DNA of 64,000 bases from Polyangiales bacterium (GCA_038231275.1 JBBRLQ010000026.1:47926-111925); one strand, 5' to 3'; positions 13,299 to 47,838 are shown, counted from the first letter of the stretch. The notes: generated by a model from the letters alone, not told the origin. Translations and numbers: made by a program.

Positions 13299-14468
13299 TC
13301 AGCCCGCCGTCGGCCTTTGACGTGCGCGCCACGCCGCGAGCACCTCGGCCTCTCGCGCGCGCGTGATGCCGGCGCGGAGCTTGTTTCGCCGCTCTTCCGG
13401 GAGCGTCGCGAACCACGTGAGGGTGTCCTTCACCGTCTCCTCGAGCGGCCGGAAGGTGAGCCCCTTGGCGATCGCCCTCGCGCTCGAAACGCGTGCGATG
13501 CCCGCGTCGTCGGAGACGGGATCCACCCAAACGGGCATGTCCGACCATGCCTCGACCTTCTGCGACGCGAGGAATTTAGCGTCCACCCACTCGAAGCGCG
13601 CGCGGCCGCCGGTCGCTGCGTTCGTGCGCGTGAGCATCTCGCCGACGCCTTGCCGCTCTTTCGGCCCCGCCACGTTGTAGACGCCCACGTCTCCGTTCTC
13701 CGCCGCGCGGATCATCCACGCGGCGAGATCGCGCACGTCGACGTACTGGACCGGATCGGCCGGATCGCCCGGCGCCATCACGTCCCCGCCGTCCTTGATG
13801 CGCGCCGGCCAGTACGTGAAGCGATCGGACCCGTCCCCCGGACCGACGATGAGACCCGGGCGCACGTTCGTGACCTTGCCCGGCATCGCCGCCTCCGCCG
13901 CGCGCTCGCACGCCGCCTTGAGCGGTCCGTAGCTGCCTTCGTCGATCTTCTCGACGTTGGGATCGGTCAGCTTTCCGACGGCGCCCGACTCGTCGACGCC
14001 GGTCGTCGGCGGCTTGTCGTAGACCGACACCGACGACACGAAGAGGTACTGCCGCGCGCCCGACAAGAGCTCGGCGGTCGCCTTCACCTTGCGCGGGACG
14101 AAGCCCGAGGTGTCGATGACGACGTCCCACGTGCGCCCGCGCAAGGCGTCGAGCGTCCCGTCGTCGCGATCGCCGTGGAGCTTCTCGACGTCTGGGAAGA
14201 GGCCCGGGTTCGTCTTGCCGCGGTTGAAGAGGGTGAGCGCATGCCCGCGCCCGCGCGCGGCGTCGACGAGCTCGGGTCCGAGGAACTTCGTGCCGCCGAG
14301 AATGAGGATCTTCATGGCCTTCCGTGGCGTGGCGCTCGTGCCGGGCGCGCCGGACAATGCCGCGGTCTTCGGCGGCGCAGGCTCGGCCCCCGCGCATCCA
14401 AGGAGACCGCCGGCGGCGGCGGTGGCGACGGCCGCTTGAAGGAGGAAATCACGACGATGGACGCTCAT
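13299..14468 (-). CDS. Tat-exported NAD(P)-dependent epimerase/isoflavone-reductase-like SDR
   Basis: HRRDFL twin-arginine motif, lipobox LLGC, ILGGTKFLG and YGPLK. Confidence 0.85.
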   Translation of the reverse strand: MSVHRRDFLLQAAVATAAAGGLLGCAGAEPAPPKTAALSGAPGTSATPRKAMKILILGGTKFLGPELVDAARGRGHALTLFNRGKTNPGLFPDVEKLHGDRDDGTLDALRGRTWDVVIDTSGFVPRKVKATAELLSGARQYLFVSSVSVYDKPPTTGVDESGAVGKLTDPNVEKIDEGSYGPLKAACERAAEAAMPGKVTNVRPGLIVGPGDGSDRFTYWPARIKDGGDVMAPGDPADPVQYVDVRDLAAWMIRAAENGDVGVYNVAGPKERQGVGEMLTRTNAATGGRARFEWVDAKFLASQKVEAWSDMPVWVDPVSDDAGIARVSSARAIAKGLTFRPLEETVKDTLTWFATLPEERRNKLRAGITRAREAEVLAAWRARQRPTAG

Positions 14469-14505
14469 CCGCGCACAAACACCGCAGGAGTCGATTTGTT
14501 CGCGT

Positions 14506-14538
14506 TTGACGATATTTCATATTTACGTTAACTATTAT
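14506..14538 (+). promoter_or_regulatory. Putative promoter with ArsR-type operator
   Basis: AT-rich island. TTGACG (14506-14511) is followed directly by the imperfect 8-8-8 palindrome ATATTTCA-TATTTACG-TTAACTAT, upstream of the VOC-ArsR operon. Confidence 0.6.
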
Positions 14539-14568
14539 GCGTATTCACTAACCACAAACGGAGCGCCC

Positions 14569-14994
14569 ATGAAACCGCCCCCCAAGGATTGGCCTCGCAT
14601 CTCCTCCTCCCTCTTTTACGACGACGCCGCCGCCGCGATCGACTGGCTGTGCAAGGCCTTCGACTTCAAGGTGCGCCTTCGCGTGGACGGTGAGGACGGA
14701 TCGGTCGTCCACTGCGAGCTCGACTACGGCGAGGGTCTCGTCATGGTGAGCAGCTCCAAACCCGACAAGCAGTACAAGGCCCCGAGCTCGCTCGGCGGCG
14801 CCAATACCCAGACCCTGTGCGTCCAAGTCGAGGACTGCGACGCCCACTTCGCCAAGGCCCGCGCGGCCGGCGCCGGGATCGTGTCGGAGCCGAAGGTGAC
14901 CGACTACGGCGAAGGGTACTGGGCCGACCGATCCTACGGCGCCGTCGATCCGGGCGGGCATCAGTGGTGGTTCGCGCAGCGCGTACGCGGGTGA
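14569..14994 (+). CDS. VOC/glyoxalase (PhnB-like) protein
   Basis: LFYDDAAAAIDWL...AF, VVHCEL and DPGGHQWWF. GGAG precedes the ATG. Confidence 0.85.
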   Translation: MKPPPKDWPRISSSLFYDDAAAAIDWLCKAFDFKVRLRVDGEDGSVVHCELDYGEGLVMVSSSKPDKQYKAPSSLGGANTQTLCVQVEDCDAHFAKARAAGAGIVSEPKVTDYGEGYWADRSYGAVDPGGHQWWFAQRVRG

Positions 14995-14998
14995 GGAG

Positions 14999-15307
14999 AT
15001 GACCGCCGAGATCGATCGCACGCTCGCCGCCCTCGCCGATCCGACACGCCGCCGCATCGTGGACGTCCTTCGGAAGAGGCCGCGTCGCGCGGGCGAGCTG
15101 GCGGCGGCGTTCGAGATGAGCGCGCCTGCGATGAGCGCACACCTCAAGGTCCTCCGGAAGATCGGCCTCGTGGAGCCATCAGGCCTCGCGGAAGACGCGC
15201 GCGTCCGCGTCTACCGCTTGCGCCCCGAGCGTTTCGGGGAGCTCCGCACCTGGCTCGACGAGGTCGAGGCGTACTGGGACGGCCAACAACGCGCCAGGCC
15301 ACGCTGA
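14999..15307 (+). CDS. ArsR/SmtB family regulator
   Basis: ALADPTRRRI and SAHLKVLRKIGLV. GAGGAG RBS. Confidence 0.9.
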   Translation: MTAEIDRTLAALADPTRRRIVDVLRKRPRRAGELAAAFEMSAPAMSAHLKVLRKIGLVEPSGLAEDARVRVYRLRPERFGELRTWLDEVEAYWDGQQRARPR

Positions 15308-15360
15308 TCGCGGGCGAGGCATCGACAGCGGACGGATCTTTCCCTACGTTCCCCGGCGCC

Positions 15361-16641
15361 TTGAGTCCCCCCTCCCCGCCTTCGAAGAAGAAAAAGCTCC
15401 CCACGAGCCGCGTCGGCCGCCTCGCGCAGGTCGCGCGCATCGGCCTCACGAGCGGCGCGGCGCGTGCGGAGAAGACTGCACAGGTCTTGTCGTCGATGCG
15501 CGGCCTCGCGGCGAAGGTCGGCCAAATGGCCAGCTACGTCGACGGCCTCGTCCCCGAGGAGCATCGCGAGTCGTACTCCTCGTGGCTCTCGCACCTGCGC
15601 ACGCAAGCCGCGCGCTCGGAGCCGGGAGAGGTGCGCGCGCTCGTCGAAGAGGAGCTCGGCGCCCCCGTCACGAAGCTCTTCGCAGAGTGGGACGAAGAGC
15701 CGTTCGCGAGCGCGTCGATTGGCCAGGTCCACCGCGCGCGCATGGCCGACGGGCGACTGCTCGCCGTGAAGGTGCAGCACCCGGGCGTCGCGAAGGCGGT
15801 CGAGAGCGATCTCTCGAACGCGAGCCTCGTCGAGTCGATGATCGGCGCGCTCGGCGGTCGCCGCCTCGACACCAGGCGCCTCCTCGAGGTCATCAAGCTC
15901 CGTTTCCGCGAAGAGCTGGACTACGCGCACGAGGCCGAGCAGCTCCTCTACTTCACCGCGCTCCACCAGGGCGATCCGCAGATCCACATTCCCGCGCTCG
16001 TCGCCGAGCGATCGTCGGGCCGCGTCCTCTCTACCGAGCTCGTCAGCGGGCGCACGTTCGACGAGGCCTGCGCCGCGAGCGCCGATGAGCGACGCGCGTG
16101 GGCGGAGACGCTCTGGCGCTACGTGTACCGAGGCAACCTCGTCGGCGGCCGCTTCAACGCGGATCCGCACCCCGGCAACTACATCTTCCACGACGACGCG
16201 CGCATCACGTTCCTCGACTACGGCTGCGTGCAGAAGATCGAGCCCCCCGCACTCGCCGGCGCCCGCGCGATGCACGACGCCGCGGTTCGACGCGACGAGG
16301 GAGCGTTCACGAAGCACGTCTCCACGATGATCGGCGCCAAGCCGGGCGCGCTGGAGGACGCGGCGCGCGCGTACATCCGCCGCTGCTTCGAGCCGATCTT
16401 CGCCTCCCCATTCCATATTACGCGTCCCTACACGGCGAGCCTCGTCGTCTCCACGAAGGGCCTGGCCGGCGTCGCGCGCGCCGTGAAGAACGAGGAGCTC
16501 TTCACGATGCCGCCGGAGATGCTCTTCATGAACCGGCTGCAGTTCGGCTTTTATTCGGTGCTCGCGCGCCTCGACGTAGAGGTCGATTACGCAGCGACCG
16601 AGCGCCGCATCCACGCCGAAATCGTCGCCGCGTCGTCGTGA
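15361..16641 (+). CDS. ABC1/AarF/UbiB family atypical kinase
   Basis: KVGQMAS, ASASIGQVHRA, AVKVQHPG, EELDY, ADPHPGN and LDYG. Confidence 0.9.
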   Translation: MSPPSPPSKKKKLPTSRVGRLAQVARIGLTSGAARAEKTAQVLSSMRGLAAKVGQMASYVDGLVPEEHRESYSSWLSHLRTQAARSEPGEVRALVEEELGAPVTKLFAEWDEEPFASASIGQVHRARMADGRLLAVKVQHPGVAKAVESDLSNASLVESMIGALGGRRLDTRRLLEVIKLRFREELDYAHEAEQLLYFTALHQGDPQIHIPALVAERSSGRVLSTELVSGRTFDEACAASADERRAWAETLWRYVYRGNLVGGRFNADPHPGNYIFHDDARITFLDYGCVQKIEPPALAGARAMHDAAVRRDEGAFTKHVSTMIGAKPGALEDAARAYIRRCFEPIFASPFHITRPYTASLVVSTKGLAGVARAVKNEELFTMPPEMLFMNRLQFGFYSVLARLDVEVDYAATERRIHAEIVAASS

Positions 16642-16642
16642 G

Positions 16643-17083
16643 TTACTCGAGGACCTTCGCGAGCAGCGCTTCGTTCTCCGGCGAGAGCCGAACGAACTTG
16701 AGGCCCACGTCGAATTTGCCGGGGGCGCCTTCCTCGAGGCGCTCGATCCAGGCGACCTCGGCGTCGAAGGTCACCGACGGCTGGTCCTTCAGGAACAGCT
16801 CCATCGTCAGGCGATCACCGACGCGCAGAGGTTCATCGGTGTACACGCGTACACCCCCGCGGCTGACGTCGATCGGCTCCTCTTGGTGATCGAAGAGCTT
16901 GAGACCCGCCGCCCGGCAATAGACGGGCGCCTCGATGCGCCGGAACTGACGACGCTCCTTCGGATCCTCCGGGATCTCCGCGGAAACCTTCGGACGGAAT
17001 CCGGATTTCGTACGGCTCGCCGGCTCGATGCCCGTAAGCATCGTCAAGACGCGCTGTGCGAGTGTTTTCTTCGGCTCGGTCAT
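16643..17083 (-). CDS. PilZ domain protein 1
   Basis: RRQFRR (RxxxR) and DVSRGG (DxSxxG) motifs. Confidence 0.85.
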   Translation of the reverse strand: MTEPKKTLAQRVLTMLTGIEPASRTKSGFRPKVSAEIPEDPKERRQFRRIEAPVYCRAAGLKLFDHQEEPIDVSRGGVRVYTDEPLRVGDRLTMELFLKDQPSVTFDAEVAWIERLEEGAPGKFDVGLKFVRLSPENEALLAKVLE

Positions 17084-17223
17084 CGAGGAGGGCGGCCCTT
17101 CACTTCGACCCTTACTGTGGCGCAACTCGGCGCCGCAAGCCTCAAAATGCCGTTTGGCTGGAATTTTGAGCGACGCATCGCGTCATCACGCCCTTGGAGC
17201 GCCCGATTTCCCGGCCGTTCGGT

Positions 17224-17571
17224 CTATTCGCCGAGCACTTTTCGGAGGAGCTCTTCGGCGCGGACGTCGAGGTGGAGGAACTTCAAGCCGACGTCGAAGC
17301 GCGCGACGGCTCCCTTCGGCAGCTTCTCTACCCACGCGACCATCGCCTGAAATGTCACTTCGTCGTCACCGGCGCCCTCGACGAAGAGCTCCAACGTCAA
17401 TCGATCGCCGACCTTCATCGGCTCGTCGCTGTAGATGCGGACGCCGCCGCGGCTCACGTCCACGGCCTCTTGCCGCTTGGACATGATCTTCAGCCCGGCG
17501 GGGCGACAGAAGACCGGCGCCTGGATTCGTCGATAGCGTCGCCTCTCGGGACCGTCGTCCGCCGAACCCAT
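17224..17571 (-). CDS. PilZ domain protein 2
   Basis: RRRYRR and DVSRGG motifs. Clear paralog of the neighbouring gene. Start may be 17583. Confidence 0.85.
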   Translation of the reverse strand: MGSADDGPERRRYRRIQAPVFCRPAGLKIMSKRQEAVDVSRGGVRIYSDEPMKVGDRLTLELFVEGAGDDEVTFQAMVAWVEKLPKGAVARFDVGLKFLHLDVRAEELLRKVLGE

Positions 17572-17645
17572 TCCAAGAAGCATGTCTGACCGAAGCCGGC
17601 GCGCAAGGGCGTTCGCGCAAGGGCGTTGTGGTACCGTTTTCGGTC

Positions 17646-18626
17646 ATGTTCTCTCGCGACGTCCTCGAGATCGATCGCGAGGCTGTGACGCGCGAGATCG
17701 CCGAGACCGTGCGCGCCCAGGTGCTCGGAACGCTCAAGCGTCGGGGCGCGATCGTCGGCCTCTCGGGCGGGATCGACAGCTCGGTCGTCGCGGCGCTGGC
17801 GGTGCGGGCGCTCGGAAAAGAGAAGGTGCTCGGTGTCTTCATGCCCGAGCGCGATTCGTCGGGCGACTCGCTGCGCCTGGGGAGGCTCCTCGCGGAGTCG
17901 CTCGGCATCGAGACCGTGCTCGAGGACATCGCGGGCACCGTGGAGGCCGCCGGCTGCTACCGCCGCCAGGACGACGCCGTCCGCACCGTGTTCCCGGAGT
18001 ACGGGCCCGGGTACAAGTGCAAGATCACCCTGCCGTCGATCCTCGAGAGCGAGCGGCTCAACGTCTTTCAGCTCACGATCCAGTCGCCGTCCGGCGAGAC
18101 GAAGACGAGCCGCATGGGGCTCGCGGCATTCCTGCTGCTCGTGGCGGCGACCAACCTCAAGCAGCGCGCGCGGAAGATGATGGAATACTTCCACGCCGAT
18201 CGGCTGAACTACGCCGTCGCCGGCACGCCGAACCGGCTCGAGTACGACCAGGGCTTCTTCGTGAAGCAAGGAGACGGCGCCGCGGATTTCAAGCCGATCG
18301 CGCACCTCTACAAGACGCAGGTGTACGCGCTCGCCGCGCACCTCCATGTCCCCGCGGAAATTTGCGAGAGGCCGCCCACGACCGACACGTACTCGATGCC
18401 GCAGACCCAGGAGGAGTTCTACTTCGCGCTCCCCTACGACAAGATGGACCTGTGCCTGTACGGCAAGAACCACGGCGTCCCGGCAGCGGAGGTCGCGCCG
18501 ATCGTCGGCGTCACCGCGGAGCAGGTCGAGCGCGTCTACAAGGACATCGACAAGAAGCGGATGACGACGCGCTACCTCCACGCGCGCCCGCTCCTCGTCC
18601 ACGACGTGCTCGAGATCGCGAAGTAG
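17646..18626 (+). CDS. nadE: NH3-dependent NAD synthetase-like ATP pyrophosphatase
   Basis: GLSGGIDS, NLKQRAR, GTPNRLE, GFFVKQGDG and PIAHLYKTQV. Confidence 0.85.
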   Translation: MFSRDVLEIDREAVTREIAETVRAQVLGTLKRRGAIVGLSGGIDSSVVAALAVRALGKEKVLGVFMPERDSSGDSLRLGRLLAESLGIETVLEDIAGTVEAAGCYRRQDDAVRTVFPEYGPGYKCKITLPSILESERLNVFQLTIQSPSGETKTSRMGLAAFLLLVAATNLKQRARKMMEYFHADRLNYAVAGTPNRLEYDQGFFVKQGDGAADFKPIAHLYKTQVYALAAHLHVPAEICERPPTTDTYSMPQTQEEFYFALPYDKMDLCLYGKNHGVPAAEVAPIVGVTAEQVERVYKDIDKKRMTTRYLHARPLLVHDVLEIAK

Positions 18627-18627
18627 A

Positions 18628-20616
18628 ATGTGCGGGATCGCCGGCATCGTCGCCACCGGCGCCGCCGCCCTCCCCCCGACGCGCGAGGCCCTCACGCGAA
18701 TGGCGGCAGCGCTGCACCATCGCGGCCCCGACGAGCTCGGCGTCTACCGCCGCGGCCCCGCCGGCCTCGCGCACGCGCGCCTCTCGATCATCGATTTGAA
18801 GAGCGGGCAGCAGCCCCTCGCGAACGAGGATCACACGCTTTGGGTCGTCTACAACGGCGAGATCTTCAACTACGTCGAGCTCCGCGCCGACCTCGTCGCG
18901 CGCGGTCACGTGTTCAGGACCGCCAGCGACACCGAGGTCATCGTCCACGCGTACGAGGCCTGGGGAGACGACGCGTTCGCGCGCTTCAACGGCCAATTCG
19001 CGATCGCGCTGTGGGACGAGACGCGCGCACGCCTCGTCCTCGCGCGCGACCGGCTGGGCGTAAGGCCGCTCCACGTCTGCGAGCGCGGAGGCCGCGTCGT
19101 CTTCGCGAGCGAGGTAAAGGCTATTTTCGCCGGCGATCCGGAGATCCCGCGCGCGCTCGATCCGAAGGGGATCGACGAGACGTTCACGTTCTGGTCGATC
19201 GTCCCTCCGCAAGGCGTCTTCGAAGGCATCGGCGAGCTCCGCCCCGGGCACGTGCGAACGTACCAAGCAGGCGAGGTCCATGAGCGCGCGTTCTGGACGC
19301 CCTGCTTTCCACCGCAGCACGGATTTCACGGCACGCTGGACGATGCGGTTGTCCAGGTCCGCGCGGCGCTTGAGGACGCGACGCGCCTGCGCATGCTCCG
19401 CGCCGACGTCCCGGTAGGCAGCTACCTCTCTGGCGGCCTCGACAGCTCGCTCGTCGCCGCGCTCGGTCTCCGCGTGAAGGGAGAGGGCTTTCACACCTTC
19501 TCGCTCCGCTTCGAGGACGCCGAGTACGACGAGACCGCGTTTCAACGCGCGATGGCGGCTCGCCTCGGCACGCAGCACCACGAGGTGATCGTCTCGCGCG
19601 CCGACATCGCGGGCGTGTTTCCCGAGGTCGTCTTCCACACCGAGCGTCCGATCCTCCGCACCGCGCCGGCCCCGCTGCTCCTCCTCTCGCGCCTCGTCCG
19701 GGAGACCGGCATCAAGGTCGTCCTCACCGGCGAGGGCGCCGACGAGATCTTCGCCGGCTACGATCTGTTCCGCGAGGCGAAGGTCCGCCGCTTCTGGGCG
19801 AAGGCGCCGGCGTCACGGACGCGCCCACGCCTCCTCGAGCGGCTCTACCCTTACTTGGCGCGCTCGCCGGTCGCGCAGCAAGCGATCGCGCGGCAGTTCT
19901 TCGGGAGGGATCTCGACCAGTGGCGTGCTCCCGGCTTTGGCCACGCGACGCGATGGAATGGCACGAGCGCGCTAAAACGCCTATTTTCGAAGGAGATGCG
20001 CGATCGGACGACAGGACGAGACGCCGTCGCGCGGCTTCTCGCCGATCTGCCCGCCGCGTTCGCGTCGTGGGATCCGCTCGCGCAAGATCAGTACCTGGAG
20101 ATGAGGACGCTCCTCTCGGGGTACCTCCTCGCGTCGCAGGGCGATCGCATGCTCATGGCGAGCTCGGTGGAGGGGCGCTTCCCGTTCCTCGACGCCAACG
20201 TCGTGGAGCTCGCGAGCACGCTGCCCTCCCGGTACAAGCTCGCGGTCCTCGACGAGAAGCACGTCCTGAAGCGCGCGGCGGCAGGCCTCGTCCCCGACGC
20301 GATCCTACGTAGGCAGAAGCAGCCGTACCGCGCGCCCGACGCGCTGTCGTTCGTGGGGCCTCACGCGCCGGCGTGGGTGAGCGACGCGATGAGCGAGGCG
20401 CGCGTGGCGGAGGCCGGCGTCTTCGATCCGGGCGTGGTCGGGCAGCTCTGGAAGAAGTGCGCGGCGAAGAAGGACGACGGGCAGTTCTCGAACGCCGACA
20501 ACATGGCCGTGGTCGGCGTCCTGTCGACGCAGCTCCTCCACGCCCGCTTCGTCGCGCGCCCGCCCGACCCGACGAGACCCATCCCCCTCACGACGCTCGT
20601 AGAGAGAGACCCATGA
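18628..20616 (+). CDS. asnB: Asparagine synthetase (glutamine-hydrolysing) family amidotransferase 1
   Basis: MCGIAG N-terminal Cys, HRGPD, NGEIFN, LSGGLDS, GEGADE and EGRFPFLD. Confidence 0.93.
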   Translation: MCGIAGIVATGAAALPPTREALTRMAAALHHRGPDELGVYRRGPAGLAHARLSIIDLKSGQQPLANEDHTLWVVYNGEIFNYVELRADLVARGHVFRTASDTEVIVHAYEAWGDDAFARFNGQFAIALWDETRARLVLARDRLGVRPLHVCERGGRVVFASEVKAIFAGDPEIPRALDPKGIDETFTFWSIVPPQGVFEGIGELRPGHVRTYQAGEVHERAFWTPCFPPQHGFHGTLDDAVVQVRAALEDATRLRMLRADVPVGSYLSGGLDSSLVAALGLRVKGEGFHTFSLRFEDAEYDETAFQRAMAARLGTQHHEVIVSRADIAGVFPEVVFHTERPILRTAPAPLLLLSRLVRETGIKVVLTGEGADEIFAGYDLFREAKVRRFWAKAPASRTRPRLLERLYPYLARSPVAQQAIARQFFGRDLDQWRAPGFGHATRWNGTSALKRLFSKEMRDRTTGRDAVARLLADLPAAFASWDPLAQDQYLEMRTLLSGYLLASQGDRMLMASSVEGRFPFLDANVVELASTLPSRYKLAVLDEKHVLKRAAAGLVPDAILRRQKQPYRAPDALSFVGPHAPAWVSDAMSEARVAEAGVFDPGVVGQLWKKCAAKKDDGQFSNADNMAVVGVLSTQLLHARFVARPPDPTRPIPLTTLVERDP

Positions 20617-22166
20617 ACGGCGTTCCCCAGCTCCACGACTACCTCTCCGACTCCGCGCGGCGCCTGCCGGAGAAGATTGCGCTCGTCTGTCGCAAGCAGC
20701 GCTTCTCGTACCGCGAGCTCGATCGGCGCGCGAACCGTCTCGCCCACGCGCTTCAACGGCGCGGAGTCTCGCGCGGCGATCGGATCGTCGTCTTCGCGGA
20801 CAACACGGTAGAGACCGTGATCGCGTTCTGGGCGATCTTGAAGGCGAACGCCGTCGTCTCGATCGTCAACCCCCTCACCAAGGCCGACAAGCTCGCCTAC
20901 CTCTTGAACGACTGCCGCGCGGTGGCGCTCGTCACCGACGGGCACCTCACGCCGGTCTTCGCCGACGCCGCGACGAAGTCTCGGCACCTCCGCCACGTCA
21001 TCATTTCCGGGGCGATCGACGCGGCGCGCACAGCGAGCCTGCCCGGGGTGGTCGCGTGGGACGTGGCCCTCGAGGATGGAGATCCCGCCGCGCCGCCGCC
21101 CCGGAAGAACATCGACATCGACCTCGCCGCCATCATCTACACCTCGGGGAGCACCGGCGATCCGAAGGGCGTCATGCTCACCCACCGGAACATGCTCACC
21201 GCGGCGCGCTCGATCACGACGTACCTCGAGAACGTCGAGGACGACGTGATCCTCGGCGTCCTCCCCCTCGCCTTCGATTACGGCCTCTACCAGATGATCA
21301 TGGCGTTCCGCGTCGGCGCCCGCCTCGTGCTCGAGCGCTCGTTCACCTACCCGGCCCAGGTGCTCGAGGTGGTGGTCAGCGAGAAGGTCACCGGCTTCCC
21401 CGGCGTGCCGACCATCTTCGCCATCCTCGCGGAGATGAAGACGCTCAAATCCCATGATTTTTCGAGCATCCGCTACGCGACGAACACCGCCGCGGCGTTG
21501 CCGGTCAAGCACATCACCGTCCTGCAAGACATCTTCCCGGGCGCGAAGATCTTCAGCATGTACGGCCTCACCGAGTGCAAGCGCTGCACGTACCTCCCGC
21601 CCGCCGATCTCGCGCGCAAGCCGACCAGCGTAGGCGTCGCCATCCCGAACACCGAGCTCTGGATCGTCGACGAGAACGGCGCAAAGGTCGGTCCCAACGT
21701 CGTCGGCCAGCTCGTCATCCGCGGCGCGACCGTCATGAAGGGCTACTGGGAGAAGCCCGAGGAGACGGCGAAGAAGCTGCGGCCCGGTCCAGTGCCCGGC
21801 GAACAGGTCCTCTACACCGGCGATCTCTGCAAGCTCGACGACGAGGGCTACCTCACCTTCGTCGGGCGCATGGACGACATCATCAAGAGCCGCGGCGAGA
21901 AGGTGGCGCCGAAGGAGGTCGAGACCGCGCTCATGAACGTCGTCGGCGTGAAAGAGGCGGCGGTCATCGGCGTGCCCGACGAGATCCTCGGCCAGGCGAT
22001 CAAAGCGTTCGTGGTCCTAGAAGAGGGCGCGACGCTGACCGAGAAGGATCTCCAGAAGGAGTGCCAGAGGCGCCTCGAGAATTTCATGGTGCCCAAGCAC
22101 TTCGCGTTCGTCGCCGAGCTTCCGAAGACGACGACCGGCAAGATCAAGAAGACGGGGCTCGCGTGA
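20613..22166 (+). CDS. AMP-forming acyl-CoA/acyl-ACP ligase
   Basis: YTSGSTGDPKG, YGLTE, TGD and PKTTTGKI. ATGA-coupled to asnB. Confidence 0.92.
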   Translation: MNGVPQLHDYLSDSARRLPEKIALVCRKQRFSYRELDRRANRLAHALQRRGVSRGDRIVVFADNTVETVIAFWAILKANAVVSIVNPLTKADKLAYLLNDCRAVALVTDGHLTPVFADAATKSRHLRHVIISGAIDAARTASLPGVVAWDVALEDGDPAAPPPRKNIDIDLAAIIYTSGSTGDPKGVMLTHRNMLTAARSITTYLENVEDDVILGVLPLAFDYGLYQMIMAFRVGARLVLERSFTYPAQVLEVVVSEKVTGFPGVPTIFAILAEMKTLKSHDFSSIRYATNTAAALPVKHITVLQDIFPGAKIFSMYGLTECKRCTYLPPADLARKPTSVGVAIPNTELWIVDENGAKVGPNVVGQLVIRGATVMKGYWEKPEETAKKLRPGPVPGEQVLYTGDLCKLDDEGYLTFVGRMDDIIKSRGEKVAPKEVETALMNVVGVKEAAVIGVPDEILGQAIKAFVVLEEGATLTEKDLQKECQRRLENFMVPKHFAFVAELPKTTTGKIKKTGLA

Positions 22167-22843
22167 GCGAGGACGAGCGCGTTCGTCGCGCGTACGCCGA
22201 GGGGCGCGTTCGGTTCTTGGATCTCGATCTGGAGATCGCGCCGGGCGCGCTCGTCCCTCGTCGAGAGACGGAGCTCCTCGCGCGCACGGCGATCGGTCTC
22301 CTCGCGGCCCTGCCAGGCGACCTTCGCGTGGTGGACATGTGCTGCGGCTCCGGAAACCTCGCGTGCGCCATCGCGTCCTTCATCCCGCAATCGCACGTGT
22401 GGGCGAGCGATCTGACGGACGGTTGCGTGGCGGTCACGAGGAGGAACGTCGCGCGCCTGGACCTCGGCGCGCGGGTGACGGTCACGCAAGGCGATCTGTT
22501 CGCCGCCCTCGCCGGCTCGGGCCTCGAGGCTGCGGTCGACGTCGTCGTCTGCAACCCGCCGTACATCTCGACCGGCCGCCTCGAGAAGGAGCGCAAGGAA
22601 CTGCTCGATCACGAGCCGCGCGAAGCGTTCGACGGGGGCCCCTACGGCCTCACGATTCACCAGCGCGTCGTCCGAGAGGCGCCCCCGTTCCTGCGCGCGG
22701 GGGGGTCGCTCCTCTTCGAGATCGGGCTTGGGCAGGAGCGTCAGGTCGACGTCCTCTTTCGTCGCGCGACCTCGTACACTGCCACCGTGCACGAAAAGGA
22801 CGCCGACGGTCACGTGCGCGTCGTGATGGCAAAGAAGGTCTGA
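22163..22843 (+). CDS. HemK/PrmC-like SAM N-methyltransferase lacking the N-terminal domain
   Basis: LVPRRETELL, DMCCGSG, NPPY and EP..AFDGG. GTGA overlap with the ligase. Confidence 0.85.
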   Translation: MSEDERVRRAYAEGRVRFLDLDLEIAPGALVPRRETELLARTAIGLLAALPGDLRVVDMCCGSGNLACAIASFIPQSHVWASDLTDGCVAVTRRNVARLDLGARVTVTQGDLFAALAGSGLEAAVDVVVCNPPYISTGRLEKERKELLDHEPREAFDGGPYGLTIHQRVVREAPPFLRAGGSLLFEIGLGQERQVDVLFRRATSYTATVHEKDADGHVRVVMAKKV

Positions 22844-22846
22844 CGA

Positions 22847-23089
22847 ATGGAAATCAAGGAGCAGGTCCGTCAGTTCATCGTCAGCAACTTCTACGTCGCG
22901 GACCCCGTTGCGGTCGGAGACGAGACGTCGCTCCTCGACCAGGGCATCATCGACTCGACCGGCGTCCTCGAGGTCATCAGCTTCCTCGAGTCGACGTTCG
23001 GCATCGTGGTCGCCGACGAGGAGATGCTCCCCGACAACCTCGACACGATCGGGCGCATCGCCGCGTTCGTCGGCAAGAAAAGGGCATGA
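22847..23089 (+). CDS. Acyl carrier protein 1
   Basis: 80 aa, acidic, GIIDSTG phosphopantetheine motif. Confidence 0.9.
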   Translation: MEIKEQVRQFIVSNFYVADPVAVGDETSLLDQGIIDSTGVLEVISFLESTFGIVVADEEMLPDNLDTIGRIAAFVGKKRA

Positions 23090-23362
23090 GGACGACGGCG
23101 CGCGCGGGTTGATCCGCCGCCTGAGCCGTCGCGCCTGAACGCGCGGAGAAGGCTCGGAAAACCGACACGCCTCGATGCGAGAGCTCCGCCTTGCACGGCG
23201 GCGGCCCGCGTGGCAGTACCCGCGCGCGCAAGAGCCAAAGTGGGGGTGCGTTGCGCGCCGGCGAGGGCGACGCCATGGGGTCGTTTGTCCCGCCATTACT
23301 GAACGCATTTCTAGTACGCGGACCACGGCCGTTCGGTCGAAGAGCCCGGCGGTTCGAGGGCG

Positions 23363-23472
23363 GAAAAGACCGCGAAAAGACGGCCTCGAACGCCTGATTT
23401 ACCGATAATTTCCGGCGCGTTGGCCCGGAGAAGAAAAGGCAACTTTTCGAGGGCGATTTTTATCGCCTGATT
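23363..23472. promoter_or_regulatory. Candidate regulator-binding repeats upstream of the priming glycosyltransferase
   Basis: GAAAAGAC direct repeat at 23363 and 23374, palindrome GAAAAG-GCAA-CTTTTC at 23433-23448, and CGCCTGATT at 23391 and 23464. Confidence 0.45.
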
Positions 23473-23591
23473 CAGCGTACTTAGGCCCAATGTGGACGAC
23501 GCTCGCGAAATGTAGGTTGCACGGTGCGGGCGCGGCGCATACGAGGAACAGTCGCGGTTTCACTACCCCTCACTCTCTTCCGAGCACCACC

Positions 23592-24977
23592 ATGATCACC
23601 CCCCGATTGAACAACCTGGCGCCTGGTCTGACCTCGAAGGTCAACCTTGCGGCGGATTGTGCGGCGCTGGCGGTGGCGGGGGGGCTCGCGTGCGTGGGGT
23701 CCTGGTCGGAGCCGGCGCTGGTCGCTTCGGCGACGATCGTGGGCTGGGTCCTCGCGGCCCGCGTCCTTCGCCAGTACGACATCTGGCACAAGCAGGGCGT
23801 CGTCGGCGAGCTCGCCCTCACGACCGTGATGGTCCTCGGGACGGTCATCGAGCTGTTCCTCCTGCGCCTCGTCCTTCCGGCGCACGTGATGCCGAACCTC
23901 TCGCTCGGCAAGTACGTCGACGTCGCGCTCCCAGCTCTCGTTCTGCTTCGCCTCTTCATGGTCGCCGTCCGCTCGGTGCGTGAGCAGGCAAAGCACGACG
24001 TCCTCGTCGTCGGCGCCGGCGCGCTGGGGCGCGTCACGGCGGAGGATCTCCTCGCCGATCGCGCGCAGCCGAAGCAGATCGTGGGGTTCCTCCGCTTCCG
24101 TGACGACGCGACGGTCCCGCGCATTCCCGGCCCGCTGCTCGGAGACGTGAGCGAGCTCGACTCGGTGCTCAAGACGCACCCGGTGAGCGAGGTCTACATC
24201 GCCGGCAACATGGTCAAGAACGCCGAGACGATGCAGGCCGTCATCCGCGTCTGCGAGAAGTTCGGCGTGCCGTTCGCGCTGCCTGCGGCGGGCTTCCGCT
24301 TCGGCCGCGCCCGCGCCGTCAACGCCAAGGCCATCCAGGATGGCTACATCCACTACCAGGCGTTCGAGGCGAAGCCGGTGCAGGTCGCCCTCAAGCGCGC
24401 CTTCGACGTCGCGCTCTCGGCGATCGCGCTCTGGCTCCTCTCGCCCGTTCTGATCGCCACCGCGATCGCCGTCAAGCTCTCGTCGAAGGGGCCCGTCCTC
24501 TTCAAGCAGCCGCGCGTCGGCATGCACGGTCGCCCGTTCAACATGCTGAAGTTCCGGTCGATGGTCGTGAACGCCGAGGCGCTCAAAGAGCAGCTGATGG
24601 CGCAGAACGAGCAGAGCGGCCCGGTCTTCAAGATGAAGTCGGATCCGCGCGTCACCGCCGTCGGCCGCTTCATCCGCAAGTACTCGATCGACGAGCTCCC
24701 GCAGCTGATCAACATCCTCCGCGGCGAGATGGCCATCGTCGGCCCGCGCCCGCCGGTCCCCAAGGAGGTCGCGCTGTACGAGCCGTGGCAGCGCCGCCGC
24801 CTCAGCGTCCGTCCGGGACTCACGTGCGTGTGGCAGGTCAGCGGCCGCAACGAGATCAGCTTCGAGCAGTGGATGTACTTGGACATGCAGTACATCGACA
24901 ACTGGAGCCTCGGTCAGGACCTGGGCCTCATCCTGAAGACTGTGCCCGTCGTCCTGACCGGCCGCGGCGCTTCCTGA
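23592..24977 (+). CDS. Priming polyprenyl glycosylphosphotransferase (WcaJ/EpsZ-like)
   Basis: N-terminal TM helices, Rossmann-like VVGAG, KRAFD, KFRSM, DPRVT, SIDELPQL and GPRP. Confidence 0.93.
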   Translation: MITPRLNNLAPGLTSKVNLAADCAALAVAGGLACVGSWSEPALVASATIVGWVLAARVLRQYDIWHKQGVVGELALTTVMVLGTVIELFLLRLVLPAHVMPNLSLGKYVDVALPALVLLRLFMVAVRSVREQAKHDVLVVGAGALGRVTAEDLLADRAQPKQIVGFLRFRDDATVPRIPGPLLGDVSELDSVLKTHPVSEVYIAGNMVKNAETMQAVIRVCEKFGVPFALPAAGFRFGRARAVNAKAIQDGYIHYQAFEAKPVQVALKRAFDVALSAIALWLLSPVLIATAIAVKLSSKGPVLFKQPRVGMHGRPFNMLKFRSMVVNAEALKEQLMAQNEQSGPVFKMKSDPRVTAVGRFIRKYSIDELPQLINILRGEMAIVGPRPPVPKEVALYEPWQRRRLSVRPGLTCVWQVSGRNEISFEQWMYLDMQYIDNWSLGQDLGLILKTVPVVLTGRGAS

Positions 24978-25064
24978 CGCGTCCTGCCGGCCCATACGCC
25001 CCTACAAGACGTCATCCGTTTGGGGCGATGACTTGGCCGCAGCGACGGTTACACTAGGCATCCG

Positions 25065-25493
25065 ATGGCGACCGCCCGCCGCTCGAGCACCAAGCTCAAG
25101 GCCGCTTCTGCAAAGAAGCGCATCCTCCTCGTGGAGGACGAGCCGACGTTGCGCCAAAGCGTGAAAAATCACCTGGTCCGCAGAGGGTTCGACGTCGACG
25201 CGACCAGCGACTCGGAGTCGGGGATCCGCGCGGTGAAGGGCCACCTGCCGGATCTCGTCTTCGTCGATCTGCAGCTGCCACGGGAGTCGGGGTACGAGGT
25301 CTGCGAGATCCTGCGCAATGAGCTGCGGCTCAAGGAGCTGCCGATCGTCCTCATGGGGGAGACCAACTCTCCCGAGGCGCGGGCGTTCGCTGAAGAGGCC
25401 GGCGCGGATCGCTACTTGAACAAGCCCTTCACCTTGCGCCAGCTCGACGCGCTCGTGGACGCGCTCCTCCGGGCCGAGGCGCGCAAGGCGTGA
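25065..25493 (+). CDS. Single-domain response regulator (EpsW-like by context)
   Basis: LLVEDE, DLVFVDLQLP and KPF. No output domain. Confidence 0.88.
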   Translation: MATARRSSTKLKAASAKKRILLVEDEPTLRQSVKNHLVRRGFDVDATSDSESGIRAVKGHLPDLVFVDLQLPRESGYEVCEILRNELRLKELPIVLMGETNSPEARAFAEEAGADRYLNKPFTLRQLDALVDALLRAEARKA

Positions 25494-25999
25494 TCGTCGC
25501 CCGCTTCCGGCTCCGCGCGTGCGCGTCGGTCGGCGAGGCGCCGCGCGTGCTCGGCCGGATCTGGGTGCACGGCGACGGGGCGATCCGGATCGGCCATCGG
25601 GTCGTCCTCGACGCGCGCATCGCGCCGATCGAGTTGCACGCCACGAGCGCAGGCGCCGAGCTGGTCCTCGGGGACGACGTCGTCATTGGCCCGGGGACGT
25701 CGATCGAGGCGGAGCAGTCGGTCCGTATCGGCGCCCGTGTGCGCATCGGCGCGTTCTGCCGCGTGATGGACAGCCACTTCCACCCCCTCCGCGGCGATCG
25801 CGAGAGACGGCCACGCCCGATGCCGGTGATCGTGGAGGAGGACGTCGAGATGGGGGACCGGTCGATCCTCGTCGCCGGAAGCCACCTCGAGCATCACGTC
25901 GTCGTCGCGCCCGGCACCGTCGTGACCCGCCGCGTGCGTGCGGGGTGCACGGTGCGTGGGGCGCCGTTCCAGGTGGTCGCCGTGGGGGCGGCGCGGTGA
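25490..25999 (+). CDS. Hexapeptide-repeat (LbH) acyltransferase 1
   Basis: IG-x4 hexapeptide repeats, DSHFH and PVIVEEDV. Confidence 0.8.
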   Translation: MIVARFRLRACASVGEAPRVLGRIWVHGDGAIRIGHRVVLDARIAPIELHATSAGAELVLGDDVVIGPGTSIEAEQSVRIGARVRIGAFCRVMDSHFHPLRGDRERRPRPMPVIVEEDVEMGDRSILVAGSHLEHHVVVAPGTVVTRRVRAGCTVRGAPFQVVAVGAAR

Positions 26000-26577
26000 C
26001 CGACGAGCCGCTCACCGATCGCGCGTTCGCCCGCCTCGCGGAGACGGTTCGGCGCCCACGGGTCGCGCGCGAGGTGCTCGACGGGACGATCGCGCTCGCC
26101 CGGGCGCGATTTCTCTTCCGCGGGTGCCACCTCGGGCGGCGCGTGCGTGCGTTCGGCCCGGTACGCGTCGTCGCGCACGGCCGCATCGCGCTCGACGATT
26201 TCGCGTTCTTCCTCCGCGGGATGATCCCCTCCGAGATCGTCTGCCACGAGGGGGCCGAGATCGTGGTCGGGGAGCGCTCCGGCTTCAACTACGGCGTATC
26301 GCTCGAGGCGCGCGCGCGCCTGACGCTCGGCAAGCGCTGCCTCGTCGCGGCGATGGTGCGCATCGGCGATACGCGCGGCGGCAAATCCGCGCCCATCACG
26401 ATCGGGGATGACGTATGGATCGCCCACGGCGCCATCGTCGAACCCGGCGTCACGATCGGGGATCGCTCGGTCGTCGCAGCAGGGAGCGTGGTGGTGAGCG
26501 ACGTGCCGGCCGATCGAATGGCCATCGGCAACCCCGCGCGCGCGGTGCCGCTCGAAGCGCGCAAGACCACCACCTGA
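25996..26577 (+). CDS. Hexapeptide-repeat (LbH) acyltransferase 2
   Basis: PITIGDDVWI, GVTIGDRSVVAAGSVV and GNPAR. Confidence 0.85.
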   Translation: MTDEPLTDRAFARLAETVRRPRVAREVLDGTIALARARFLFRGCHLGRRVRAFGPVRVVAHGRIALDDFAFFLRGMIPSEIVCHEGAEIVVGERSGFNYGVSLEARARLTLGKRCLVAAMVRIGDTRGGKSAPITIGDDVWIAHGAIVEPGVTIGDRSVVAAGSVVVSDVPADRMAIGNPARAVPLEARKTTT

Positions 26578-33602: not shown

Positions 33603-34639
33603 GAACGTGGCTCCTTCGGCTTCAGCGCCTCGACCATGCGGTTCACCTCGAGGACGTCGCGCGGCCCGATGGGGAGCGCGGAGTGATCGGCGAGCGCGAG
33701 GTAGGTGCGGCGCAAGTACTCCCACAGGCCCTCGTACGCGCCGGGGCCCTTGAATTTACGGAGGAGCGTGGCGACCGCGGCCTTGCCGATCGCGCGGCCT
33801 TCGTCGAGGCCGTTCCAGAACGGGCGGAGGGGCTTGGGGCCGCCGTGAACGCCGTCGAAGGTCACGCGCGTCTCGAAGAGGTTGGCGCTGGCCTGCTGCT
33901 TTTCGCCGTACACGCGCAGCCAGAACGCATCGGGCTGCGAGCACGCGCTGAAGCCGAGCGCGGCGGTCCCTCCCTCGCAGTCGACGACCGCGCGGAGCTC
34001 GTCGAACGGGAGGATCGACTCGCGGCGCTTCCTCCAGACGGGGTGCGCCTCGCGGTAGGGACCGACGAACGCGTGCGCGAGCGACGCCAGGTGCGGCAAG
34101 AAATCGGCGATGGCTCCGCCGGGAATCTTGAGCACCGGGTTGGGGACGTTGGGATCGGCGAAGCCGCCGGGTCCGAAGATGTCGAGGCAGATCAGCACCT
34201 CGACGTGGACGACCTTGCCCAGCTCGCCGGAGCGGATGCGTCGCTGGATCTCGAGCGGACCGCGGTTGAAGACGTAGTTGTAGTCCTCCGTGAGGCCGAG
34301 CTTCTTCTCCTCCGCGCGCGCGAGCAGCGTGTCGAGCTCGGCGAAGCTCGCGGTGACGGGCTTTTCCACGATGACGTGCGCGCCCGCGTCCAGGCACTCC
34401 ATCGCGATGCGAAAATGCGTCGTCGGCGGCGTGGTGATGTGGACGACGTCGGGTTTCACCTCGCGCAGCATCTTCGCGTGATCGGTGAACCACGATTTGG
34501 CCCCGAAGCGCGCCGCAGCGGCCTCCGCGGTGGCGCTCGAGAGATCGCACACAGCCGCGATCTCGACGCCGGGCAGCTGCCGCAAGCATCCCAGATGTTG
34601 CCGGGCGATCTGCCCAGCGCCCACGAGCGCAGTCTTCAC
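33599..34639 (-). CDS. Gfo/Idh/MocA oxidoreductase
   Basis: VGAGQIA, TPPTTH, VEKP and DFLPH. Confidence 0.88.
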   Translation of the reverse strand: MKTALVGAGQIARQHLGCLRQLPGVEIAAVCDLSSATAEAAAARFGAKSWFTDHAKMLREVKPDVVHITTPPTTHFRIAMECLDAGAHVIVEKPVTASFAELDTLLARAEEKKLGLTEDYNYVFNRGPLEIQRRIRSGELGKVVHVEVLICLDIFGPGGFADPNVPNPVLKIPGGAIADFLPHLASLAHAFVGPYREAHPVWRKRRESILPFDELRAVVDCEGGTAALGFSACSQPDAFWLRVYGEKQQASANLFETRVTFDGVHGGPKPLRPFWNGLDEGRAIGKAAVATLLRKFKGPGAYEGLWEYLRRTYLALADHSALPIGPRDVLEVNRMVEALKPKEPRS

Positions 34640-35883: not shown

Positions 35884-35988
35884 CGAGCCGCGAGAGATAC
35901 CACAGCTCGGGCCGCTCCGAGGGCCGCGCGGAGGCACGGAGGGCGTGACTCCCGCGCGCATCCATGGTCTGGTTCGATCGGCAAACGA

Positions 35989-45127: not shown

Positions 45128-45142
45128 GAAGGTTCGCCTCGT

Positions 45143-46321: not shown

Positions 46322-46345
46322 GATTCGTGCGTTCCCTGCTTCCGC

Positions 46346-47832: not shown

Positions 47833-47838
47833 GGGCGG

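Follow-up and report, generated by a model that had tools for sequence, protein, structure and literature searches.

The window, a 64,000-nt stretch of DNA from a Polyangiales bacterium (GCA_038231275.1 JBBRLQ010000026.1:47926-111925), carries five plus-strand ORFs at positions 17646-23089, in the order NadE-like, AsnB, ligase, methyltransferase and acyl carrier protein (ACP). The first (17646-18626) encodes a 326-aa NadE-like PP-loop ATP pyrophosphatase (NF002048, PF02540), and its ATG at 17646 agrees with the N-termini of homologues, which read MFS(K/R)DVL. It is followed by genes for a 662-aa AsnB-type glutamine-hydrolysing amidotransferase (18628-20616), a 517-aa stand-alone adenylation enzyme of the ANL family that resembles an NRPS A domain (the ligase; 20613-22166; PF00501 and PF13193), a 226-aa truncated HemK/PrmC-type NPPY SAM methyltransferase (22163-22843) and an 80-aa ACP (22847-23089; PF00550). 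All five ORFs are present, and their junctions were read directly in the DNA: the NadE-like and AsnB genes are separated by 1 nt (TAG-A-ATG), AsnB and the ligase overlap by 4 nt (ATGA), as do the ligase and the methyltransferase (GTGA), and a 3-nt gap (TGA-CGA-ATG) precedes the ACP gene. The run of five genes with 1-3 nt gaps or 4-nt overlaps described in an earlier, sequence-only reading was thus borne out, as was its placing of the ACP last, just before a priming glycosyltransferase. The latter is an EpsZ-like polyprenyl-phosphate hexose-1-phosphate transferase (23490-24977, plus strand; PF02397) that scored 383.8 bits against TIGR03025 (cut-off 295.6) and 607 bits against NF041877, below the cut-off of 800; it is the priming step of the adjoining Wzx/Wzy exopolysaccharide (EPS) pathway. 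Hexapeptide-repeat acyltransferase ORF(s) with Hexapep matches lie further along the same strand in two frames (25490-25999 and 25519/26002-26577).

We examined 80 related loci, which bore about 11 phylum-level labels in their record titles. Within 8 kb of the NadE-like gene, AsnB was present in 74 loci, the ligase (counted at 45% identity or more) in 67, the ACP in 65 and the methyltransferase in 34. Restricting the count to the 43 loci whose flanks reach 6.5 kb or more on each side gave 43, 39, 42 and 20, and AsnB, ACP, ligase and NadE-like genes occurred all together in 38. Gene order varied, with NadE-AsnB-Lig-MT-ACP found in 17 loci, NadE-Lig-MT-ACP-AsnB in 9, NadE-AsnB-Lig-ACP in 9 and AsnB-ACP-Lig-NadE in 8. 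The arrangement is far beyond chance because almost every related locus has the same set of neighbours around its NadE-like gene. The five window genes make up a single operon-like cassette and represent one copy of a widespread kit. Gene fusions were also found: PF00501 and PF02540 were combined in one protein in 12 of 60 longer homologues, and inspection of 11 of these revealed ten with the ligase ahead of the NadE-like domain and one in the reverse order. Both halves aligned over nearly their full length in nine of the 11, the ligase half being partial in P0019 and P0002, and one fusion (P0011) represents three sequences on nine contigs. Together, the cross-phylum synteny and the ligase::NadE-like fusions tie the NadE-like gene to carrier-protein genes. 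Apparent NadE::AsnB fusions were also seen; many are a single sequence on a single contig and could reflect miscalled genes where the gap is only 1 nt.

The NadE-like protein scored 527.5 bits against the subfamily model NF002048 (cut-off 313) and 156.5 bits against TIGR00552 (cut-off 63.65), and fell below the cut-offs of NF010587 (174.8 versus 255), NF001979 (84.7 versus 250) and NF010588 (88.6 versus 479). Its PF02540 match (170.5 bits) is split into two stretches, and the protein has an insertion of about 55 residues (approximately residues 104-158) comprising one helix and three strands. Mean column identity over 37 cassette NadE-like proteins was 73%, with the insertion conserved too. 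A second nadE, which the earlier reading had proposed looking for, was found on another contig of this genome (C6:191616-192338, minus strand), within a 637-aa protein whose CN_hydrolase domain spans residues 8-264 and whose NAD_synthase domain spans residues 331-570; a sole nadE, which that reading had listed as part of what would refute it, is thus not what this genome has. A further PF02540 match, besides the split cassette-type match, was present elsewhere in all 30 other cassette-bearing genomes, which were chosen from the 80 loci for long contigs and varied taxa; these extra matches lay mostly in open frames of 540-850 aa, with a few shorter (276-439 aa). The NadE-like gene is therefore an additional copy in 31/31 genomes. 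It is also patchy, as expected for an accessory gene: of 201 genomes of the phylum, 17 had a match above the cut-off. The NadE phylogeny, also proposed earlier, was a maximum-likelihood tree of 58 rows, made up of the 37 cassette proteins and 21 canonical NadEs, among them the E. coli enzyme and the C6 copy; it placed all cassette proteins on one side of a branch with a stem of 1.66 (UFBoot 100, SH-aLRT 99). Judged from gene content and phylogeny, the cassette has a NadE paralogue of its own, distinct from the cell's NAD synthase, which is the CN-hydrolase and NAD-synthase protein on C6.

The NadE and AsnB families both convert carboxylates to amides through acyl-adenylates. The cassette AsnB has GATase_7/6 and Asn_synthase domains, an N-terminal Cys2 and an SGGLDSS PP-loop; it scored 525.8 bits against TIGR01536 (cut-off 267) and 444 bits against TIGR03108, below the cut-off of 817, and its closest solved structure is the hydroxyamidotransferase 7ylz. 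In the ACP, the phosphopantetheine site lies at Asp36-Ser37, and D36, S37 and G39 were invariant in 30 homologues. The nearest NCBIfam model to the ligase is TIGR03098 (493.1 bits, below the cut-off of 592.35), and its best PDB matches were the LgrA A domain and VinN (3wvn, the best non-LgrA match, E = 1e-66). Two ligase motifs are conserved in 73 family members: FDYGLYQ, with Asp at the place of GrsA residue 235 and Tyr at that of 236, and YGLTECKRC, whose Lys-Arg loop is shorter by two residues than that of LgrA A2 in the HMMER alignment. The ligase thus shows the VinN-type signature: Asp at 235, a bulky side chain at 236, and a Lys-Arg pair within a beta13-beta14 loop that is shortened. This comparison rests on motifs and the LgrA alignment and takes its criteria from section 2.3 of PMC11253843. 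In VinN, that section describes D230, F231 and K330/R331 of the shortened loop as binding 3-methylaspartate, and L-Asp as a beta-amino acid (PMC11253843). The signature suggests an aspartate-like acid as substrate, and the ligase is predicted to load the ACP with an acidic amino acid of this kind.

Members of the PrmC/HemK family methylate amide nitrogen. The cassette methyltransferase scored 142.7 bits against TIGR00536 (hemK_fam, cut-off 115.5) and 177.8 bits against TIGR03534, below the cut-off of 199.1 and over profile positions 47-252 only, and its NPPY and DxCCGSGN motifs were invariant in 14 homologues. We rejected it as the PrmC of this genome, given its missing N-terminal domain, its sub-threshold TIGR03534 score and the full-length PrmC encoded elsewhere (266 bits, profile positions 1-252).

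The cassette also has a counterpart in Sinorhizobium: a tblastn search of S. meliloti 2011 pSymB identified AsnB (51% identity), ACP (47%), ligase (55%) and NadE-like (59%) genes side by side. By sequence, the cassette is orthologous to the pSymB asnB-ACP(SMb20651)-ligase(SMb20650)-nadE operon, which was reportedly described by Ramos-Vega et al. in 2009 (Microbiology 155:257; cited in PMC9386255). According to the introduction of PMC7232532, smb20650 and the ACP gene smb20651 are cotranscribed, and expression of smb20650 in E. coli led to acylated SMb20651; the results of that paper show that SMb20650 could not replace FadD, the ligase not being a fatty-acid CoA ligase.

Given the observed genes, paralogy, synteny, fusions and S. 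meliloti orthology, we consider it fairly probable (about 60%) that the cassette assembles a small acyl unit with an amide group on a dedicated carrier protein and that the NadE-like enzyme does not serve NAD synthesis. The substrate, the order of steps, the site of action of each amidating enzyme and the acceptor are proposed here from family chemistry. The stand-alone adenylation enzyme would charge the 80-residue ACP with an acidic amino acid, most likely aspartate, tethered through its side-chain carboxyl in the manner of VinN and leaving the alpha-carboxylate free. The AsnB-type and NadE-like enzymes, of which the former has its own glutaminase domain and the latter none, could then convert the free carboxyl(s) of the tethered unit or of the acceptor to amides via acyl-adenylates, and the truncated HemK-type NPPY enzyme may methylate the amide or amine nitrogen. 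The finished unit would probably end up on the exopolysaccharide repeat unit made by the adjacent EpsZ/Wzx/Wzy pathway, with the hexapeptide acyltransferases (25490-26577) or alpha/beta-hydrolases as candidate transferases. A narrower version, which we advance tentatively and at less than even odds, is that the NadE-like protein would be the first member of the NAD-synthetase family to act on a carrier-tethered substrate: docked or fused with the ligase, it would amidate side-chain-tethered aspartate and, with AsnB and the NPPY methyltransferase, yield an (N-methyl)amide-bearing aminoacyl unit. If so, exopolysaccharides and further envelope molecules of more than ten phyla would carry this unit as a substituent not described before, and the NAD(+) synthase label would be mistaken in hundreds of annotations. 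Against the main proposal stands the fact that one free carboxylate on side-chain-tethered aspartate leaves the need for two amidating enzymes unexplained.

The link between the cassette and EPS is one of gene context. In a Pfam scan of the flanks of 12 loci, about seven had genes of polysaccharide, sugar-nucleotide or exosortase type less than 8 kb away, and no such genes were seen over that distance in the other five (L045, L066, L069, L083 and the S. meliloti locus L107). Hexapeptide acyltransferases adjoined the cassette in 17 of the 80 loci, were also seen in L013, L066 and L069 in the 12-locus flank scan, and in one protein (P0013) were fused to the NadE-like domain. As a rival reading, the NadE-like enzyme might amidate a uronic acid, either within the repeat unit or as a nucleotide-sugar uronate, which is similar to NaAD in being a dinucleotide-like carboxylate. 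It would do so independently of the ACP, whose arm would then supply a separate substituent. The WecG/TagA family includes N-acetylmannosaminuronate transferases, and the window encodes an EpsA-like member of it (47071-47838) together with sugar oxidoreductases; NDP-sugar dehydrogenases also adjoin the cassette in some loci (L016, L085). However, some copies of the cassette (pSymB, L066, L069) have no polysaccharide gene within 8-9 kb, the ligase::NadE-like fusions favour work on the same carrier-bound intermediate, and a second, separate AsnB-type amidotransferase in the window (35989-37929, 34% identical) could serve uronamide formation. We regard a uronate substrate as unlikely.

We give a somewhat lower standing to the reading that the protein is a true NAD+ (or NMN) synthetase of the NH3-dependent type, its gene being carried along with the cassette, and that it uses ammonia from the AsnB glutaminase or boosts NAD for the many NAD-dependent sugar enzymes of such loci. 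Its case lies in the protein itself, which passed the TIGR00552 and NF002048 cut-offs, falls under the NCBI name NAD(+) synthase and, in an AF2 model (pLDDT 91.2, pTM 0.90), had the short-type NadE/NMN synthetases 2e18, 3fiu and 1xng as its top structural matches. The SGGIDS PP-loop was invariant among 37 NadE-like homologues, and alignment with E. coli NadE revealed retention of the PP-loop, the Mg/ATP residues and the N..K.R.R, E, GFF.K.GDG..D, K, PT.D and KR motifs, with two differences in the GFF.K.GDG motif (Thr to Val, Tyr to Gln). The N..K.R.R, GFFxKxGDGxxD, K, PTxD and KR set is one that we take to include NaAD-contact residues. Against a synthetase stand its status as an additional copy in every genome surveyed, its own long-stemmed clade, the ligase fusions in several lineages and its patchy distribution, and profile scanning of 50 window ORFs detected no other NAD gene, in agreement with the sequence-only reading. 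The proposal in that reading that the NadE had been repurposed held in part: second nadE, clade, synteny and fusions identify a module-dedicated paralogue, but the sequence, with its catalytic and several NaAD-contact motifs retained, is also compatible with NaAD as substrate.

Other PP-loop enzymes couple amines or activate amide carbonyls (nitrile, amidine). It is very improbable that the NadE-like enzyme likewise makes no primary amide from ammonia, and instead couples an adenylated carboxylate to an amine or activates an amide carbonyl to a nitrile or amidine after AsnB has given the first amide: two adenylate-forming amidating enzymes do occur together in 43/43 well-flanked loci, which calls for two distinct steps, and a Pirellulales locus (L013) has two NadE-like paralogues, but the sequence is consistent with ordinary ammonia attack and the GDG-motif residue aligned with the catalytic Asp is invariant in the homologues.

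The cassette resembles several known systems in part. The exosortase-A (XrtA/PEP-CTERM) set, comprising the TIGR03098 ligase, an ACP and the TIGR03099 PLP decarboxylase, also occurs in EPS loci. We rejected membership of this set on the sub-threshold TIGR03098 score of the ligase and on searches of the 94%-complete genome, which contained no TIGR03099 decarboxylase over the cut-off (best 150 bits versus 478, on another contig) and no match to exosortase (EpsH). Hydr1/hydr2_PEP-like and stp1-like genes were observed in the window. The release-factor glutamine-N5 methyltransferase PrmC/HemK shares its catalytic domain, NPPY and SAM motifs with the cassette enzyme, which lacks the N-terminal substrate-recognition domain (profile positions 1-46). 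Short-type NadEs (P. horikoshii 2E18, H. pylori 1XNG) and the Francisella NMN synthetase 3FIU share the fold (target-normalised TM-score 0.81-0.85), the PP-loop and the catalytic motifs; in contrast, the cassette protein has the conserved insertion of about 55 residues, forms a separate clade, and is a second copy linked or fused to carrier-protein genes.

The pSymB operon has the same four genes, 47-59% identical over nearly their full length, in the order asnB-ACP-ligase-nadE, whereas the cassette has the order NadE-AsnB-ligase-MT-ACP with the NPPY methyltransferase inserted. The cassette lies inside a Myxococcus-type EPS locus, whereas no polysaccharide gene was seen up to 9 kb from the pSymB copy. 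In the vicenistatin starter-unit pathway (VinN/VinL/VinO), 3-methylaspartate is loaded on an ACP by a stand-alone A domain. Like the cassette, this system pairs a stand-alone A domain with a small ACP, and VinN has the Asp235, bulky-236 and Lys-Arg-loop signature in common with the cassette ligase. Tailoring in vicenistatin is by a PLP decarboxylase; the cassette, which is without a PKS, instead has two amidating enzymes and a methyltransferase. The 3-methylaspartate unit is tailored on its carrier, and on-carrier tailoring is what we propose for the cassette.

Five plus-strand open reading frames fill 17646-23089, separated by gaps of 1-3 nt or overlapping by 4 nt and ending in an ACP gene upstream of a priming glycosyltransferase. 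This packing had been described in the sequence-only reading and was confirmed throughout by the reading frames, the junctions and family scans. The first gene encodes a NadE-like protein of 326 aa, matched by PF02540 in two stretches and by NF002048/PRK00876 at 527.5 bits (cut-off 313). As read from the sequence, a 1-nt gap (TAG-A-ATG) separates it from an AsnB-type amidotransferase (662 aa; TIGR01536, 525.8 bits; Cys2 and SGGLDSS). Overlaps of 4 nt join AsnB to an ANL adenylating enzyme, here termed the ligase (ATGA; 517 aa, PF00501 and PF13193), and the ligase to a HemK-family methyltransferase (GTGA; 226 aa; TIGR00536, 143 bits, cut-off 115.5); a 3-nt gap (TGA-CGA-ATG) leads to an ACP of 80 aa (PF00550). 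The earlier observation that no other NAD-pathway gene lies nearby was borne out, with no such family besides the cassette NadE among the 50 window ORFs scanned. No promoter or terminator signal in 16500-25200 exceeded shuffled expectation, and Rfam had no match within the window, which has a G+C content of 66-71%. Immediately upstream, divergent from the cassette, are two small genes (16643-17583, minus strand) whose matches to the myxobacterial TIGR02266 (PilZ-like) domain are both under the cut-off; a UbiB-like kinase gene occupies 14995-16641.

The priming transferase is EpsZ-like and lies about 400 bases downstream of the cassette. A Myxococcus-type Wzx/Wzy EPS locus makes up the remaining window, with genes that resemble EpsW, EpsD, Wzx, EpsA, EpsB, EpsV, Wzy and EpsY. 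It also carries look-alikes of exosortase-associated genes: an stp1-like glycosyltransferase (34636-36168), a second AsnB-type amidotransferase (35989-37929, plus strand; N-terminus MCGIAGI, 34% identical to the cassette AsnB), which is a separate candidate for uronamide formation, and a 786-aa fusion of two alpha/beta-hydrolases resembling exosortase-A hydr2_PEP and hydr1_PEP, both below cut-off (38333-40693, plus strand). Membership of an XrtA/exosortase system was rejected, as neither an exosortase nor a decarboxylase was found, and the ligase scored below the cut-off of its closest NCBIfam model, the exosortase-A ligase TIGR03098 (493 against 592 bits); a search of this 94%-complete genome found no exosortase. 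A second carrier-protein module is located within the EPS locus on the minus strand (43239-46645), comprising DUF1839 (43239-44582), an amino acid--[ACP] ligase of the tRNA-synthetase-like type (44216-45142; NF005479, 421 bits, cut-off 357), an acyl-CoA-dehydrogenase-like protein (45143-46345) and an ACP (46346-46645; NF005480, 107 bits, cut-off 72).

The sequence-only reading had proposed that the cassette NadE is a repurposed paralogue, to be checked by a search for a housekeeping nadE and by a NadE phylogeny. A PF02540 search of the genome identified a further NadE on another contig, a 637-aa protein (CN_hydrolase 8-264, NAD_synthase 331-570) with the two-domain build of glutamine-dependent NAD synthetase. 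We extended this search to the genomes behind 30 of 80 related loci, picked so as to favour long contigs and a range of taxa; each of the 30 had a further PF02540 match besides the cassette type, mostly in open frames of 540-850 aa with a few shorter (276-439 aa). A maximum-likelihood tree was built from 37 cassette NadE-like proteins and 21 canonical NadEs, including E. coli NadE and the two-domain copy of this genome. All 37 fell on one side of a branch (UFBoot 100 / SH-aLRT 99, stem 1.66), so that the suggested phylogeny sets them apart as a separate clade. The clade is secure, but whether the E. coli type is its sister is uncertain, because long branches meet near that node. The curated NadE-like model scored above cut-off in 17 of 201 sampled genomes of the window's phylum and in 7 of 15 of the same family, which is the pattern of an accessory gene.

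To examine linkage, one genome per species was searched, yielding 170 relatives, of which the best 80 loci (57-91% identity) were kept. By their titles, these best 80 of 170 come from Myxococcota, Planctomycetota, Beta- and Gammaproteobacteria, Nitrospirota, Acidobacteriota, Zixibacteria, Gemmatimonadota, Binatia, Syntrophobacteria, Victivallales and Bdellovibrionales. Partners were counted by tblastn with the window's proteins within 8 kb, the ligase at 45% identity or more, both in all 80 loci and in the 43 with at least 6.5 kb on both sides. AsnB was present in 74/80 loci and 43/43 well-flanked loci, the ligase in 67/80 and 39/43, the ACP in 65/80 and 42/43, and the methyltransferase in 34/80 and 20/43. 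The four well-flanked loci that lack a ligase at this threshold have a more distant one (34-38% identity). The NadE-like gene stood alone in two loci, one a 2-kb contig and the other on a contig ending 588 bases upstream of the gene. There are at least four common gene arrangements, and linkage is therefore selected, not merely inherited. Clustering of all ORFs from the 80 loci revealed no further universal neighbour, with nothing besides the five genes in more than 19 loci; several recurrent clusters without a Pfam or NCBIfam match may be spurious frames in GC-rich DNA. In one Pirellulales locus, two NadE-like paralogues (L013:4404-5345 and L013:8001-8972), which share 44% and 64% identity with the window protein, surround a single AsnB-ACP-ligase set; an ORF of this locus (L013:9897-11918) combines a hexapeptide-repeat domain with an EpsH exosortase domain.

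Among 60 longer homologues, 12 unite the NadE-like domain with an AMP-binding ligase. Eleven of these were examined: 10 have the ligase first and one the reverse order, both halves align near full length in 9 (the ligase half is partial in P0019 and P0002), and the linkers are as short as 2-9 residues. One ligase::NadE-like form, P0011, represents 3 sequences on 9 contigs. In about 16 other longer homologues a NadE-like part is combined with an AsnB part, but almost every one is represented by a single sequence, and these may be gene-calling errors across 1-nt gaps. In a cluster of 11 sequences (P0013) the NadE-like domain is joined to a hexapeptide acyltransferase. A more distant offshoot (P0041-P0044; 33-36% identity, 580-719 aa) carries a fused N-terminal alpha/beta-hydrolase, with an additional C-terminal SCP2 domain in P0042 and P0043.

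The best PDB matches of the ligase were LgrA adenylation domains, followed by VinN (3wvn, E 1e-66). Its A4 motif is FDYGLYQ, and CKRC follows YGLTE in a loop 2 residues shorter than that of LgrA A2; both segments are common to 73 family members and fused forms. Passages of the review PMC11253843 attribute VinN's binding of 3-methylaspartate, and of L-Asp as a beta-amino acid, to D230 (GrsA 235), the bulky F231 (236), S299 (301) and the pair K330/R331, which lies in a shortened beta13-beta14 loop. Because the ligase signature matches that of VinN, it suggests a substrate resembling aspartate, held via its side-chain carboxyl with the alpha-carboxylate free. A long-chain fatty-acid ligase was rejected on the evidence of the A-domain-like signature and of the S. 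meliloti counterpart SMb20650, which cannot replace FadD (PMC7232532, results). The methyltransferase keeps NPPY and the SAM motif. It was rejected as a release-factor methyltransferase, as it falls below the TIGR03534 cut-off (178 against 199 bits, profile positions 47-252 only), lacks the N-terminal domain and is accompanied by a full-length PrmC encoded elsewhere in the genome. The ACP keeps Asp36-Ser37.

We give a probability of about 0.6 to a four-step reading of the cassette as a general statement, and grade its details lower. The ligase would load an aspartate-like acid onto the ACP; AsnB and the NadE-like protein would each catalyse an adenylate-dependent amidation, with the tethered unit or its acceptor as substrate; the NPPY enzyme would methylate an amide or amine nitrogen; and the unit would pass to the EPS repeat unit, with hexapeptide acyltransferase ORFs at 25490-26577 or alpha/beta-hydrolases as candidate transferases. 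The hexapeptide-repeat matches there fall in two overlapping plus-strand frames (25490-25999 and 25519-26577), either two short acyltransferase genes or one frameshifted gene. A single free carboxylate on the substrate would leave the need for two amidating enzymes unexplained.

The tie of the cassette to EPS is contextual. Polysaccharide, sugar-nucleotide or exosortase genes occur within 8 kb in about 7 of 12 loci scanned by Pfam and are absent in 5, including S. meliloti. KAS III, FabA-like and SDR genes flank the cassette in Binatia and Nitrospira loci (L015:1870-5914, L070:192-3532). A hexapeptide acyltransferase, an SbmA/BacA-type ABC transporter, a 5'-nucleotidase and an uncharacterised ORF of about 272 aa flank it in two others (L066:12856-16952; L069:3504-7838 and 13652-15033), with no glycosyltransferase within 8 kb of the cassette. 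Because the flanks vary among the 12 loci, the acceptor may differ between hosts. Amidation of a nucleotide-sugar uronate by the NadE-like protein would suit the EPS setting of the window and sits less easily with loci free of such genes; we consider it unlikely.

Conservation within the NadE-like family is very high, with a mean column identity of 73% over 37 sequences. Its AlphaFold model (pLDDT 91.2, pTM 0.90) contains an insertion of about 55 residues (helix 104-113, strands 124-128, 142-146 and 152-156), and this insertion splits the PF02540 match of the cassette type in two. The nearest solved folds were short-type NadEs and Francisella NMN synthetase (E 6e-18 to 1e-14; target-normalised TM-score 0.81-0.85); the subfamily itself has no solved structure. 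Compared with E. coli NadE, the PP-loop, N..K.R.R, the Mg-binding Glu, GFF.K.GDG..D, the downstream Lys, PT.D and KR are kept; the protein departs from E. coli NadE in its N-terminal Tyr segment, at the His that precedes KR and within GFF.K.GDG, where Val replaces Thr and Gln replaces Tyr. These residues were assigned to NaAD contacts after the B. subtilis and E. coli NadE structures. Since the E. coli motifs are kept, the protein is predicted to be an intact adenylate-forming amidating enzyme, and NaAD may still be its substrate. A genuine NAD or NMN synthetase carried along with the cassette would fit these motifs and folds and has against it the other PF02540 protein in every genome checked; we regard it as somewhat less probable again than uronate amidation. 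A role as an amide ligase or second-step enzyme is the least probable. The proposal of a repurposed NadE paralogue is supported, but not proven, by comparative evidence, through paralogue status and linkage.

The cassette is widespread: the NadE-like query matched 444 representative clusters at E <= 1e-30, the related loci bear about 11 phylum-level labels, and NF002048 also exceeded its cut-off in Methanosarcina acetivorans, the sole such match among 14 control genomes. Databases label the cassette members as NAD(+) synthase, asparagine synthase and, through resemblance, release-factor methyltransferase, and such labels lead metabolic reconstructions astray, for instance when an accessory gene is credited with NAD amidation. 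Working out what the cassette does would give the NadE fold a new function and would probably reveal a new amide-type decoration on surface polymers; concrete substrates that can be tested follow from the ligase::NadE-like fusions and from the VinN-like signature of the ligase.

The window genes are another copy of a cassette that has reportedly been known from S. meliloti since Ramos-Vega et al. 2009, its ACP said to have been described seventeen years ago. Our literature searches for the gene combination returned nothing relevant, and the literature searched assigned no product to the cassette and held no test of its nadE gene. In its introduction, PMC7232532 reports cotranscription of smb20650 with the ACP gene smb20651 and acylation of SMb20651 when smb20650 is expressed in E. 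coli; a transcriptome paper lists smb20650 among down-regulated CoA-activation genes. On pSymB of S. meliloti 2011, AsnB, ACP, ligase and NadE-like genes stand side by side, their products 51%, 47%, 55% and 59% identical to those of the window. On a Mesorhizobium plasmid, genes annotated as nadE, asnB, AMP-binding and ACP follow the order of the window, and a methyltransferase homologue (55%) lies on the opposite strand. Compared with S. meliloti, the window cassette differs in its added NPPY methyltransferase and its EPS setting.
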